Positions 43,300 through 49,321 of a stretch of DNA of 64,000 bases are shown in pieces. The stretch lies in NCBI GenBank assembly GCA_023038255.1, contig CP082927.1, forward strand, positions 446,146-510,145, written 5' to 3'. The notes under the pieces were generated by a model that saw only the letters and a program-made list of their open reading frames with translations, ran no database searches and was not told the origin of the DNA. A program made the position numbers and the translations under genes. Each line of letters opens with the position of its first letter. The first letter of the stretch is position 1. Origin of the DNA: Candidatus Peribacteria bacterium (GTDB lineage: Bacteria > Patescibacteriota > Gracilibacteria > Peribacterales > Peribacteraceae).

Positions 43300-43308
43300 T
43301 GCTAAAAT
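43300..43308 (+). promoter_or_regulatory. extended -10 element upstream of gene K
   Basis: TGCTAAAAT, ending 10 nt before ATG 43319. Confidence 0.4.
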
Positions 43309-43318
43309 ACACACATAT

Positions 43319-43684
43319 ATGGAGTTCGACCCGCACACACTTCATCAGATCATCCAGCGCATCCAGCAGCAGATGCGTTGCCCGCAGTGCGGCGAGAAGG
43401 TGCCTGTGGATTTCACCTGCGTTCGCTTGACCGGTGATGATTTTGTGTTGATGCAGCTTCGTTGTGACATTTGTGATGCGTATATCGTCCTGCATGCCTC
43501 TTTGGCAGGAATCAAGGGCGTGAAACTCGAGAAAGAGGATAAAGACCGCATTTTGAACGCGTCTTCCTCACTTTGCATGCGTGAAGGAGAGGTTGATATG
43601 CTGAGAAACGCACTTGAAAAGGCATCCGGCTCGTTTGAGCAGCTGTTTGTAGAATCCAAGGACGTCGAACAGAAGGAAATCTAA
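43319..43684 (+). CDS. small zinc-ribbon protein K (121 aa)
   Basis: CPQCGEKV...(24 aa)...CDICDAYI four-Cys ribbon followed by a charged helical tail. TGCTAAAAT -10 ends 10 nt before the ATG. Confidence 0.65.
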   Translation: MEFDPHTLHQIIQRIQQQMRCPQCGEKVPVDFTCVRLTGDDFVLMQLRCDICDAYIVLHASLAGIKGVKLEKEDKDRILNASSSLCMREGEVDMLRNALEKASGSFEQLFVESKDVEQKEI

Positions 43685-43727
43685 GACACATCCCCCTCAT
43701 TCCATCAGGTCGTTTTGGCGTTTTACA

Positions 43728-43756
43728 TTGAAAAAATGGCGTAAATTTGGTATTAT
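43728..43756 (+). promoter_or_regulatory. promoter of gene L
   Basis: TTGAAA-N17-TATTAT with a TGG extended -10, 23 nt before ATG 43780. Confidence 0.5.
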
Positions 43757-43779
43757 AGGGAGATACCAACATACAACGT

Positions 43780-46770: not shown

Positions 46771-46817
46771 AACGCCTGCAAAAGCACCTCAATTACCTTT
46801 TAGAAAATGTCTTATAA

Positions 46818-46846
46818 TTGCGTAAAAATACAAAATTTGGTATAAT
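46818..46846 (+). promoter_or_regulatory. promoter of cassette M-N
   Basis: TTGCGT-N17-TATAAT (TGGTATAAT), 19 nt before ATG 46866. Confidence 0.55.
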
Positions 46847-46865
46847 AGAGAGAAAACAAAAAACT

Positions 46866-47186
46866 ATGGATGACACACAAATCCCCAGCGGCCAGGAGAT
46901 CTATGACGCCATTATGGCAGGTATTGAACCAGAGCTGACTACTGCAGGACTGGAGACGCTGGAGCAGGTGTATGCGAATGAATTAGAGCAAGACAAGGCA
47001 GCCCGCGCCACACGGTATGACACTGCATTTCTGGAATACGACAAACAGTTCCAGGCATACAGCGATCAGTGGATAGACAGTCTGCGCTCGTACAAACGCA
47101 CGGCGGTCTCCTCACTCGAAAAAGAAAACCGTGAAACGGAAGACAAGGCCGCGCTCGATTCTATCGAATCTTCTCTCTCAGCATGA
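46866..47186 (+). CDS. small helical protein M (106 aa), paralog of F
   Basis: The track start at 46818 overlaps the promoter (TTGCGT-N17-TATAAT, 46818-46846), so ATG 46866 (MDDTQIPSGQEIYDAIMAGIEPELTT) is preferred. Its stop overlaps the start of N (ATGA). Confidence 0.75.
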   Translation: MDDTQIPSGQEIYDAIMAGIEPELTTAGLETLEQVYANELEQDKAARATRYDTAFLEYDKQFQAYSDQWIDSLRSYKRTAVSSLEKENRETEDKAALDSIESSLSA

Positions 47187-49321
47187 TGCATGTCTGTCGT
47201 TCCCATTGGCAGGTGACACAGCGCGAGCGCCGCGAAATTTTTCAGTTGCCCAATGTTCCCCAGAATGCACCGCAAAATGCGCCGGCTGCCACGCCGCAGG
47301 CTGCGCCGAATGTTCCGCCGAATAATCCGAACGCTGCAAAAAATATCGCGAAAGATAAAATTGTGAAAGCGGAAGCGACGGGTAACAAAATCCGGTCCAT
47401 GAAGCAGAGCATGGATGCTGCGCTGGCACAGATCGCGAATATCGGAAAGCCTCCTGCAGCCCCAGTTGCAGGCGCCCCGGACGCACTGACCGCAGCAGTA
47501 ACATCCGTCGATGCCATCAAAACCGCATCCAATATCAATACCCTTCCTGCAGATGCGCTGACCGACATGATGCAGAGCGCACGCACACTCGGTCCGGAAG
47601 CAGGGGAAGTGTGCGATAAAATTCAAGACGCCATGACACAGTTGCAGGCTGCTCTTACGAACGAGCCTGATGCGGTGAAACAGAAGCAGATTACGGACAT
47701 GGCAATACTGCTGGAAAATAATGCAAAACTTATTCTGGCCGATCTCCTCACGCCCGATGTAAAAACCGGTGCGCCGAAAGGTATCGGGTCCCTTTTTGGA
47801 ACAATGCAACCGGAAGAAGCTGCAAAAATCACTGATGCGGCGAATGCAAGCCCTACCATGACCAGCATTAATGATTCATCCCTGTCCGAAGACGAGCGCA
47901 GCAAACTGATCGGTAAAGTGATGTGTGACCATGGCGTGACAATCGAGAAAGATGCCAGTGGCCAGTACATTGCAGTTGCCCCGCTGAGCCCGTTTGCAAA
48001 ATTTCTGAATCAGATCAACGGTATTTTCAGACTGCTTGGATTTGTGAAGACGCCGGTGAAGGGTGCAGAGACGAATCCATCCACTCCATCCAACGGTCCG
48101 CAGACGACGCTGAATCAGGCAGAACAGGATGCCATTAAAAAGAACATCAAAGATCCAGCCTTCGGCATGGCCACTGAAAAGGGAAAAGCAAAGACCGCAA
48201 AAGCGACTGCTGAAAAGGCACTCTACGGTATGGCTCTCGCTCCCAATACGCCTCCTCCCGTGCCGGCGCCGGGCAGCTTGAAAGGACAGCTCACTGCTCT
48301 GACCGCAGAGAAGACAAAGCTCGAAACAGATATCGCCGCTCTCAAGGCTGCAAACCCTCCCGATCAGAATGCAATTACCACAGAAACTGGAAAGCTGAAT
48401 GTAAAGATGTCTGAAATCACCGCGAAGGAAGCGGAGATAAAAGTGCAGGAAGAGATTGTGAAAAAAGAGGACGTAAAAATGAAATACATTGATGACTTGC
48501 AGAAAGCCGCGACAGATTCTGTGACTGCCATGACAGAAGTGCAGACATACATCACGACGCTCAATACGAAACGCACGTACAAAAATGCAGACTCAAAAAT
48601 TGTAGGCGATGCATTGTCGGGCATACAGATAGATGGTCCGGGCAATGATCTCAGCATTCGCTGCCTGAATGTAAATCTGTCAGCATGGCAGGCGATGCAG
48701 GATCTTGCTGCGCAGAAATTCGGCATTGTAAAAACTGACATGGATCTCACGCAGCCGGATATCATGAAAGATCCGGAAAAATGTCTTGCTGCACTCAAAG
48801 TCATCAAACAGAGATTGGCGGATCATGAAAAGAAAATAGATAGCCGCATCGGAGCATTGACCGCTGTCGGTGCATCAAATGACGAAGCAGCAGATGTGGC
48901 AAAAATTGAAATGAATGTACCCGGTATCCAGTTTGAGTATAAAAACGCACAGTGGTCATTTGCCACTGACCCGGGCGCAAATGCGTACGATGCCTATTTA
49001 AAATCCGGCGAGGACAATGTTACAGCGGTCTTAAAAAACTACATGGACCAGAAAATACAGAGCGACCCTCTTTCTCCTTTGAGCGTGTCTTTTTTGGATA
49101 AGGCTCTGGAATATGAAAATAGTATCAATCCAAACACTGTTGCCATACGGCAATATAAGCAACTGATAAAAGATATTCCTCTCCTGAAGCAAAATGTCAG
49201 TGTGTCCACACCCATGGTAAAGGTAACTGATGTTCCGGGTTTGAAGGATGCAATAGAGAAGCATCCTTTGTTTACAGGAAATACACTTGATGCAGACTTG
49301 AAGACGAATATGGGGATGTAA
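47183..49321 (+). CDS. giant orphan protein N (712 aa)
   Basis: The start overlaps the stop of M by 4 nt. N-terminal NVPQNAPQNAPAATPQAAPNVPPNNPN low-complexity region. HGVTIEKDASGQYIAV module shared with G. No signal peptide. Confidence 0.8.
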   Translation: MMHVCRSHWQVTQRERREIFQLPNVPQNAPQNAPAATPQAAPNVPPNNPNAAKNIAKDKIVKAEATGNKIRSMKQSMDAALAQIANIGKPPAAPVAGAPDALTAAVTSVDAIKTASNINTLPADALTDMMQSARTLGPEAGEVCDKIQDAMTQLQAALTNEPDAVKQKQITDMAILLENNAKLILADLLTPDVKTGAPKGIGSLFGTMQPEEAAKITDAANASPTMTSINDSSLSEDERSKLIGKVMCDHGVTIEKDASGQYIAVAPLSPFAKFLNQINGIFRLLGFVKTPVKGAETNPSTPSNGPQTTLNQAEQDAIKKNIKDPAFGMATEKGKAKTAKATAEKALYGMALAPNTPPPVPAPGSLKGQLTALTAEKTKLETDIAALKAANPPDQNAITTETGKLNVKMSEITAKEAEIKVQEEIVKKEDVKMKYIDDLQKAATDSVTAMTEVQTYITTLNTKRTYKNADSKIVGDALSGIQIDGPGNDLSIRCLNVNLSAWQAMQDLAAQKFGIVKTDMDLTQPDIMKDPEKCLAALKVIKQRLADHEKKIDSRIGALTAVGASNDEAADVAKIEMNVPGIQFEYKNAQWSFATDPGANAYDAYLKSGEDNVTAVLKNYMDQKIQSDPLSPLSVSFLDKALEYENSINPNTVAIRQYKQLIKDIPLLKQNVSVSTPMVKVTDVPGLKDAIEKHPLFTGNTLDADLKTNMGM

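Follow-up and report, generated by a model that had tools for sequence, protein, structure and literature searches.

The window analysed here is a stretch of 64,000 nucleotides (nt) from a Candidatus Peribacteria bacterium (NCBI GenBank assembly GCA_023038255.1, contig CP082927.1, positions 446,146 to 510,145 of the forward strand). It belongs to a curated, circular genome of 1,239,242 bp from a Lake Fargette incubation (PMC9040852). Within the window, the genes M and N are one copy of a Peribacteria-wide two-gene module, in which a gene for a small, acidic, helical protein is followed by a coupled gene for a large, variable protein that begins with a short conserved leader. The genes F and G, further upstream, are likewise a true module. 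We put the probability at about 0.5 that these modules pair an adaptor or chaperone with a leader-tagged polymorphic cargo for export or assembly, serving in host interaction. All eight proteins (F, G, H, I, K, L, M and N) match public entries (K8942_02270 to K8942_02330) exactly, and each is annotated as a hypothetical protein. Scans of K, L, M, N, F, G, H, I, D and E against Pfam, PHROGs, NCBIfam and PADLOC gave nothing above threshold. The genes of the modules and their relatives in the window are as follows.

F, 31506-31838, + strand: small protein of the F/M family.
G, 31844-35383, + strand: leader-tagged giant; leader core E16-L22 at 31889-31909.
H, 35457-35762, + strand: H-type small protein, of a second family.
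I, 35765-38308, + strand: leader-tagged giant; leader core E14-K20 at 35804-35824.
M promoter, TTGCGT-N17-TATAAT, 46818-46846, + strand: read from the sequence.
M, 46866-47186, + strand: F/M family, 106 amino acids (aa) from the ATG; small acidic helical protein.
N, 47183-49321, + strand: 712 aa; leader-tagged variable giant, coupled to M by ATGA.
N leader, residues 1-21 (MMHVCRSHWQVTQRERREIFQ), 47183-47245, + strand: core E15-F20 at 47225-47242; E 2e-12 with the leader hidden Markov model (HMM).
E, 28226-30616, + strand: leader-bearing protein (leader HMM E 1.5e-8), core E16-Y21 at 28271-28288; preceded by D and not by a small gene.

The window was compared with 15 Peribacteria species loci, gathered by anchoring on the gene K, and with 78 further loci from a metagenome scan that used a 9-sequence subset alignment of the F/M family as the query; labels such as L001 and L004 denote Peribacteria comparison loci of 20 kb. 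A module is recognised by an F/M-family gene, a coupled open reading frame (ORF) and the motif E-x-R-Phi-Phi within about 20 residues of Met1. All three are present in M-N and F-G; H-I has the leader and the coupling with a different small family, and K-L has none of them. In the K-anchored loci, every F/M-like gene precedes a large same-strand ORF that starts with the leader, joined either by an ATGA overlap or across a gap of a few nt. The F/M HMM found 111 genes in the species loci and the 78 metagenome loci, and 101 of the 111 have a downstream same-strand ORF. The pattern E-x-R-[LFMVIEQ]-[LIVCFMGSA] is present in the first 45 residues of the downstream protein in 85 of these 101 pairs, against about 2% by chance, and the misses are mostly near-misses. 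Across 82 distinct pairs, the stop-to-start distance was -4 (ATGA) in 25 and -1 in six, with most others at +1 to +13 nt. With few exceptions the small gene is translationally coupled to its downstream neighbour, whose product measures 170-1180 aa.

The F/M family comprises acidic, all-helical proteins of about 100-130 aa. An exhaustive HMMER search returned 945 representatives at 50% identity clustering (E <= 1e-3), 834 of them at E <= 1e-10, and nearly all were stand-alone proteins of 100-135 aa. No consistent Pfam match was found among 150 members, comparison of the family profile with PDB sequences gave noise only, and PADLOC returned M at E 0.007 only. The AlphaFold2 (AF2) model of M, with a per-residue confidence (pLDDT) of 87, predicts helices at 9-20, 26-29 and 32-35, followed by one long helix at 41-105 (65 residues); the short N-terminal helices bear the conserved block Y-D-x-I-M-x-x-I-E-P-E-L-T-T. 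A Foldseek comparison of this model with the PDB and with viral structures gave no match with E < 1. Of 94 distinct F/M genes, 49 are preceded by a promoter of the M type (TTGxxx-N17-TAxxxT), where about 5% would be expected; it often ends 8-10 nt before the ATG, which gives a very short 5' untranslated region (UTR). An alternative TTG start of M at 46818 would lengthen the protein to 122 aa, but it falls within the M promoter.

Leader-bearing giants without an F/M gene are preceded by small proteins of the H type. The H-type HMM detected members in L004, L005, L006 and L047/L049, and in every case a leader-bearing giant follows directly. H and the F/M profile are unrelated (hhalign probability 0.25%); by eye, the C-terminal ends of the two small families resemble each other in an [IL]-E-x-S-[LI]-like motif, which is a weak observation.

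The N-termini of four proteins of the window can be aligned: G, TGERRLLALAQDVPP; I, TTEKRLLAKQMQNDVPQN; N, QRERREIFQLPNVPQN; and E, LREKRLMYNAIGG. The leader occupies about 25 residues and consists of a His/Phe-rich stretch after Met1, the core E-x-R-L-[LIV]-x-F and a hydrophilic Pro/Glu/Ala linker; in N, a Pro/Gln/Asn/Ala linker follows the leader. A position-specific consensus built from 82 distinct leaders has an invariant Glu 9-17 residues from Met1, Arg at +2, Leu at +3 (73%), Leu, Ile or Val at +4 (81%) and Phe at +5 or +6. Position +1 is variable (H/R/A/Q/K), and the second Arg alone is invariant. The leader HMM matches protein N-termini only, and the layout of a short helix with a flexible linker is docking-peptide-like.

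When 68 cargoes are aligned, not one column is conserved past the leader. The families of G, I, N, L, D and E, compared profile against profile, gave probabilities of 2.2% or less, and all-against-all BLASTP within the window gave a single significant pair, F and M (30% over 97 aa, E 2e-12), together with stretches rich in P/Q/N/A that E, G and N have in common. As far as sequence comparison can tell, the giant bodies are not detectably related, and the leader alone is the conserved feature. A preliminary description of this region had taken F-G, H-I, K-L and M-N for repeated small-plus-giant cassettes and had suggested an expanding paralogous family of giants. The repeated architecture holds for F-G, H-I and M-N and fails for K-L, where K is a core gene and L has no leader. 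The giants did not prove to be paralogues, since BLASTP and profile-profile comparison show low complexity only; the leader and the partner gene are what they have in common. Among the small proteins, F and M are paralogues, and H is unrelated to them. The ORF coordinates in that description were exact for K, L, M and N, the M stop and the N start do overlap as ATGA, and Pfam bore out the carA, FNR-like and CofE-like genes that lie between the two groups. The lengths of G, I, L and N add up to 3734 aa, against the figure of about 3700 aa given earlier.

A C-terminal Pfam domain above the gathering score, with intact catalytic motifs, was recognised in three of the 68 cargoes. The first is a J-domain with HPD (DnaJ, 38 bits) in an 1172 aa protein of a K-rpoC hotspot (an interval described below), the second an anthrax-lethal-factor-like zinc protease with HECGH (ATLF, 39 bits), and the third a thioredoxin with WCHNC (92 bits). 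The remaining 65 of the 68 have no recognisable toxin domain, and no immunity-like gene was recognised downstream of the cargoes.

Side by side with the modules stands the gene D (25365-28220, + strand), which ends in a transmembrane-like hydrophobic stretch and a Gly/His/Asp-rich tail; the leader-bearing E starts 5 nt later. In two other loci, leader-bearing proteins come after partial ORFs whose GGHDGH tails are similar (L005:2-301 and L006:1-396). D-like proteins may represent a third type of partner, or they may belong to the system as a membrane component; the C-terminus of D matched neither the F/M nor the H-type HMM.

The modules evolve rapidly in a well-conserved setting. Between the window and L004, identity is 96% for rpoC, 94% for K and 90% for carA, against 35% for M, 37% for L and 30-57% in pieces for G and I; no counterpart of N was detectable in L004. 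Only in L004 was an orthologue of G found. Weak relatives of N stand at the corresponding position in L006 (23% over 695 aa), L005 and L001. The modules are inherited as units, in that the best M homologues travel with the best N homologues (L001 and L006). The diverged homologues of L and N keep conserved blocks, and for this reason both are taken to be real genes. Across species, the hotspot giants are linked in a loose mosaic network at 23-45% identity. Three module hotspots with copy-number variation were identified: the interval between K and rpoC, the interval between the nuclease with lamin-tail (LTD) and SNase domains and carA, and the position directly downstream of mfd. Mfd accounts for 10-12 of the 97 ORFs neighbouring modules. 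Examples of F/M modules directly downstream of mfd are L028:6687-9899, L048:6711-9896, L061:1788-4964 and L064:6588-9788. Modules adjoin transcription genes at mfd and on the rpoC side, which may be functional or plain hotspot geography.

The hotspot that holds M-N is bordered by core genes and contains one further large gene, L.

K, 43319-43684, + strand: 121 aa core protein with a four-Cys zinc ribbon; bounds the hotspot on the left.
L promoter, TTGAAA-N17-TATTAT, the -10 hexamer preceded by TG, 43728-43756, + strand: best sigma-70-like site in the region, 10 of 12 positions.
L, 43780-46770, + strand: 996 aa; lineage-restricted orphan without a leader.
rpoC promoter, TTGCAT-N17-TATAAT, 49341-49369, + strand: read from the sequence; conserved across loci; right border of the hotspot.

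Each of the 15 species loci contains K, whose identity across 13 cluster members is 88-98%. The conserved backbone order is carA-FNR-CofE-K-[variable]-rpoC-X-fusA; in the window, rpoC follows N and EF-G lies further on. In L013, L014, L015, L016 and L081, K is directly upstream of rpoC with no large gene between them, and in most species K is present without L; different giants, which bear the leader, stand directly after K in L010 and L047. As K adjoins rpoC without an insert in some species, and 0 to 4 variable genes lie between the two among the loci, K is a core gene and not the partner of L, K-L is not a cassette of the module kind, and the interval from K to rpoC, both of them core genes, is a variable hotspot. 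The part from 43.7 to 49.3 kb holds two separate transcription units, L and M-N. The earlier reading of K as a 121 aa four-Cys zinc-ribbon protein was correct (CxxC-x24-CxxC, with C21/C24 and C49/C52), as was that of the L promoter; copy-number variation among related genomes, which had been put forward as a check, was found in this interval.

The matches of K, in Pfam and elsewhere, are all sub-threshold zinc ribbons (Elf1, Rrn7 and Rpo12-like); the K profile against PDB sequences gave noise only, and IMG labels the protein 'RecR'. K always lies on the rpoC side of the carA-FNR-CofE block, and rpoB does not adjoin rpoC in this lineage; K may be a factor associated with RNA polymerase. Between the rpoC promoter and rpoC (49376-49440), 17 Peribacteria loci have in common a conserved, structured 5' leader RNA. 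It forms a two-helix stem-loop with the inner hairpin CUUAUU-UGAGACG-AAUAAG and the conserved loop N-AGACG-A. Compensatory double changes occur in 10 of 16 pairs, and paired cells make up 91.9%, compared with 78.7% in shuffles (0 of 500) and 43-55% in slid controls; a comparison with Rfam gave no match even at E <= 1. Translation of rpoC probably starts not at the GTG at 49435 but at a conserved ATG about 55 nt further downstream.

L has orthologues solely in L001/P0043 (43%), L004 (37%) and L007, always immediately after K. Its layout comprises an N-terminal helical hairpin, a conserved block at about residues 125-195, a variable all-helical middle and a conserved C-terminal domain of about 190 aa. 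The middle is divergent or deleted among orthologues, and the form in L007 is short and keeps both conserved ends. The leader HMM found no N-terminal leader in L. A search of a protein collection with L returned its own cluster and a single 43% homologue, a profile search of genome contigs with the L alignment and a tblastn comparison with phage genomes gave no match, and the L profile against PDB sequences gave noise only. The AF2 model of L, made from a two-sequence alignment, had a pLDDT of 49. Foldseek matches of this model to ARM/HEAT solenoids had E > 1e-3 and TM-scores < 0.2 and are not interpretable. Promoter-like sites are not in excess in the region (five, against 7.2 expected from shuffles). 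The L promoter and 5' UTR are almost base-identical in the window, L001 and L004, while the proteins are 37-43% identical. About 45 nt are conserved base for base (43700-43779; L001 and L004), in the form TTGAWA AAATGGCGTAAATTTGG TATTAT AGGGAGATACC; because the spacer itself is conserved, an operator or a regulated L promoter is suggested.

For the modules, the reading that we place at roughly even odds is as follows. The F/M or H-type small protein would act as a dedicated chaperone or adaptor, and the leader would be a docking or targeting peptide that routes a polymorphic cargo to export or assembly machinery encoded elsewhere. A few cargoes would bring C-terminal enzymatic or effector-like domains (the J-domain, the lethal-factor-like HExxH protease and the CxxC thioredoxin), and the fast turnover would reflect conflict with the organisms on which the episymbiont depends. 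The giants are regarded as cargo because a conserved N-terminal tag sits on unrelated bodies, three of 68 with intact C-terminal domains. A stronger claim, held only tentatively, is that the leader and the F/M and H-type proteins constitute a new Peribacteria targeting system that delivers hypervariable cargo to the surface or into host cells by a route independent of the known secretion signals; we regard this as possible rather than probable.

Several results weigh against the adaptor-and-cargo reading. The leader is absent from a few downstream proteins (in L015, L023, L026, L028 and L040). Secretion-system genes were not enriched among the 97 neighbouring ORFs, and no Sec, Tat (twin-arginine translocation) or pilin-type signal and no transmembrane segment was found in G, I or N. 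A recognisable domain is present in just three of 68 cargoes, and the J-domain and thioredoxin equally fit a cytoplasmic role. Moreover, the small protein may bind the variable body and not the leader, because two unrelated small families serve the same leader.

Some of these observations favour a serious rival, if on balance a rather unlikely one, namely intracellular assembly. The giants would then be cytoplasmic helical or coiled-coil scaffolds and the small protein an assembly chaperone, with the leader docking to an internal complex and nothing exported. The missing export signals, transmembrane segments and neighbouring secretion genes, the two cargo domains suited to the cytoplasm and the location of the hotspots beside transcription genes (rpoC, mfd and the zinc-ribbon gene K) all agree with it. 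However, extreme divergence and turnover are unusual for internal structural proteins in genomes where rpoC is 96% identical, and a lethal-factor-like protease is a cargo more typical of effectors. Adjacency to core genes is, in addition, expected of hotspots in a syntenic reduced genome.

The hotspot location, copy-number variation and fast evolution of the modules would also suit an intracellular conflict system, whether a toxin-antitoxin pair, an anti-phage defence or a selfish mobile cassette, with the small upstream gene as a possible antitoxin. We consider this quite improbable, as there is no PADLOC or PHROG match, L has no phage match and no integrase or transposase is linked to the modules within the window, and giants of 400-1200 aa, in which a domain can mostly not be recognised, are unlike known toxins.

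Still less probable is a leader that serves as the cleavable signal of a known route, that is, a class III prepilin, Tat or double-glycine signal, the last for a C39-peptidase ATP-binding cassette (ABC) exporter. Peribacteria do encode type IV pili and a type II secretion system (PMC4736985), seven of the 82 leaders read [GAS]-F-[ST]-L-x-E in the manner of a prepilin site, the E-[RK]-R-L-L core resembles twin-arginine motifs, and a Gly is found at +8 to +11 in about 20% of leaders. Against this, the stretch of 20 residues that follows the core Glu is hydrophilic (mean Kyte-Doolittle value -0.49, maximum 1.03) and contains no hydrophobic segment, and the pilin alpha1-N and the Tat and Sec h-regions are therefore excluded. 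A type IV pilin or class III signal was rejected for want of the roughly 20 hydrophobic residues after the Glu. A Tat or Sec signal was rejected because no hydrophobic window of >= 1.6 occurs in G, I or N and the first Arg is not conserved, and a double-glycine leader because Gly reaches 21% or less at each position from +8 to +11, Gly-Gly is not conserved and no Peptidase_C39 or ABC transporter occurs among the neighbouring ORFs. The idea of four equivalent cassettes with giants of one paralogous family draws on the shared strand, the similar sizes, the P/Q/N/A low complexity of E, G and N and the F-M homology, and is scarcely credible given that K is independent of L, L is without a leader, the bodies are dissimilar at the profile level and H is unrelated to F and M.

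Other genes of the window were noted in passing. J (38394-39518, - strand) begins with a signal peptide of the Sec type and in several species stays in place between the modules and carA. Its weak NCBIfam match to the pore-forming toxin subunit MakB (E 0.002) is far below the cut-off, and a PDB profile search, which gave noise only, did not support it. Two neighbouring genes at 1960-3773 (- strand) encode T4SS_pilin (PF18895) domains, which hint at a type IV secretion-like apparatus in the genome. At 17081-22789 (L095:644-5187), RNase Y and then a large secreted nuclease form the conserved left border of the upstream orphan island; the nuclease has five lamin-tail domains and an SNase domain, a signal-like N-terminus and a C-terminal transmembrane segment. 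At 58021-63150, a 1709 aa protein combines calcium-binding repeats of the RTX type with two LamG-like domains and one SpaA-like domain, and is probably a surface or secreted adhesin unrelated to the modules.

Host interaction in the Candidate Phyla Radiation (CPR, or Patescibacteria) is largely unknown, and most of the variable genes of these bacteria are unannotated orphans. What was a block of hypothetical giants is now a searchable module, defined by two small families, an N-terminal tag, coupling and chromosomal hotspots. Public data contain about 945 clusters of it at 50% identity, and Pfam, NCBIfam, PHROGs and PADLOC have no entry for it. The annotation logic is also corrected, in that K is a core gene adjoining rpoC and no part of a cassette. 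If the tag is a targeting signal, candidate effectors could be counted and the adaptor-leader interaction tested in vitro without culturing. Were the proposal of a new targeting system true, the whole set of host-interaction proteins in an uncultivated CPR class could be read off its sequences by means of the leader.

No description of a module of a small helical protein and a leader-tagged giant was found in the literature, and the modules resemble several known systems in part. Like the targeting peptides of microcompartments and encapsulins, the leader is a short amphipathic segment with a flexible linker at the terminus of unrelated cargoes, but the module cargoes are far larger, have a dedicated small partner gene and lie near no shell genes (97 neighbouring ORFs). 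With polymorphic toxins, the modules have in common a conserved N-terminal trafficking element, variable bodies, occasional differing C-terminal domains and hotspot turnover; they differ in that in most cargoes (65 of 68) no toxin domain can be recognised and that the accessory gene is upstream.

Chaperone-effector pairs of the type III, IV and VI secretion systems include the class I chaperones, VirE1-VirE2, and the Eag chaperones with prePAAR effectors. As in these, the gene of a small acidic protein immediately precedes that of its client, often with translational coupling, and a short conserved N-terminal motif is carried by diverse sequences, as with prePAAR. However, there is no similarity of sequence or fold, the predicted structure of M being all-alpha and CesT and Eag folds alpha/beta. 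A class I chaperone of the CesT/SycE kind was rejected on the all-helical model and the lack of a match to M in Pfam or, by Foldseek, in the PDB. To our knowledge, CPR bacteria have no type III or type VI secretion system.

Type VII secretion systems employ pairs of WXG100/Lap targeting factors with LXG effectors, and PE-PPE pairs. M and F differ from these in having no WXG100 (PF06013), Lap-type, LXG, PE or PPE match. In the F/M family, two of 150 members match WXG100 at E about 1e-3, below the cut-off, and the alignment has no conserved WxG. The M model (pLDDT 87) predicts one long helix with short N-terminal helices and not a two-helix hairpin. The conserved part of the cargo is about 25 residues long, against the helical domain of about 100-200 residues in LXG and PPE proteins, and no LXG or PPE domain was matched by Pfam in N, G, I or the 68 cargoes. 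We know of no EssC/EccC in the Peribacteria lineage, and FtsK_SpoIIIE is not among the top 25 families listed for the 97 neighbouring ORFs (64 kb window and 20 kb loci). Esx substrates are effectors encoded adjacent to small alpha-helical targeting factors (PMC13622651). The modules are like type VII pairs in that a gene for a helical protein of about 100 aa lies right upstream of one for a large polymorphic protein conserved at its N-terminus, with a variable and often disordered or low-complexity body and with multi-copy expansions.

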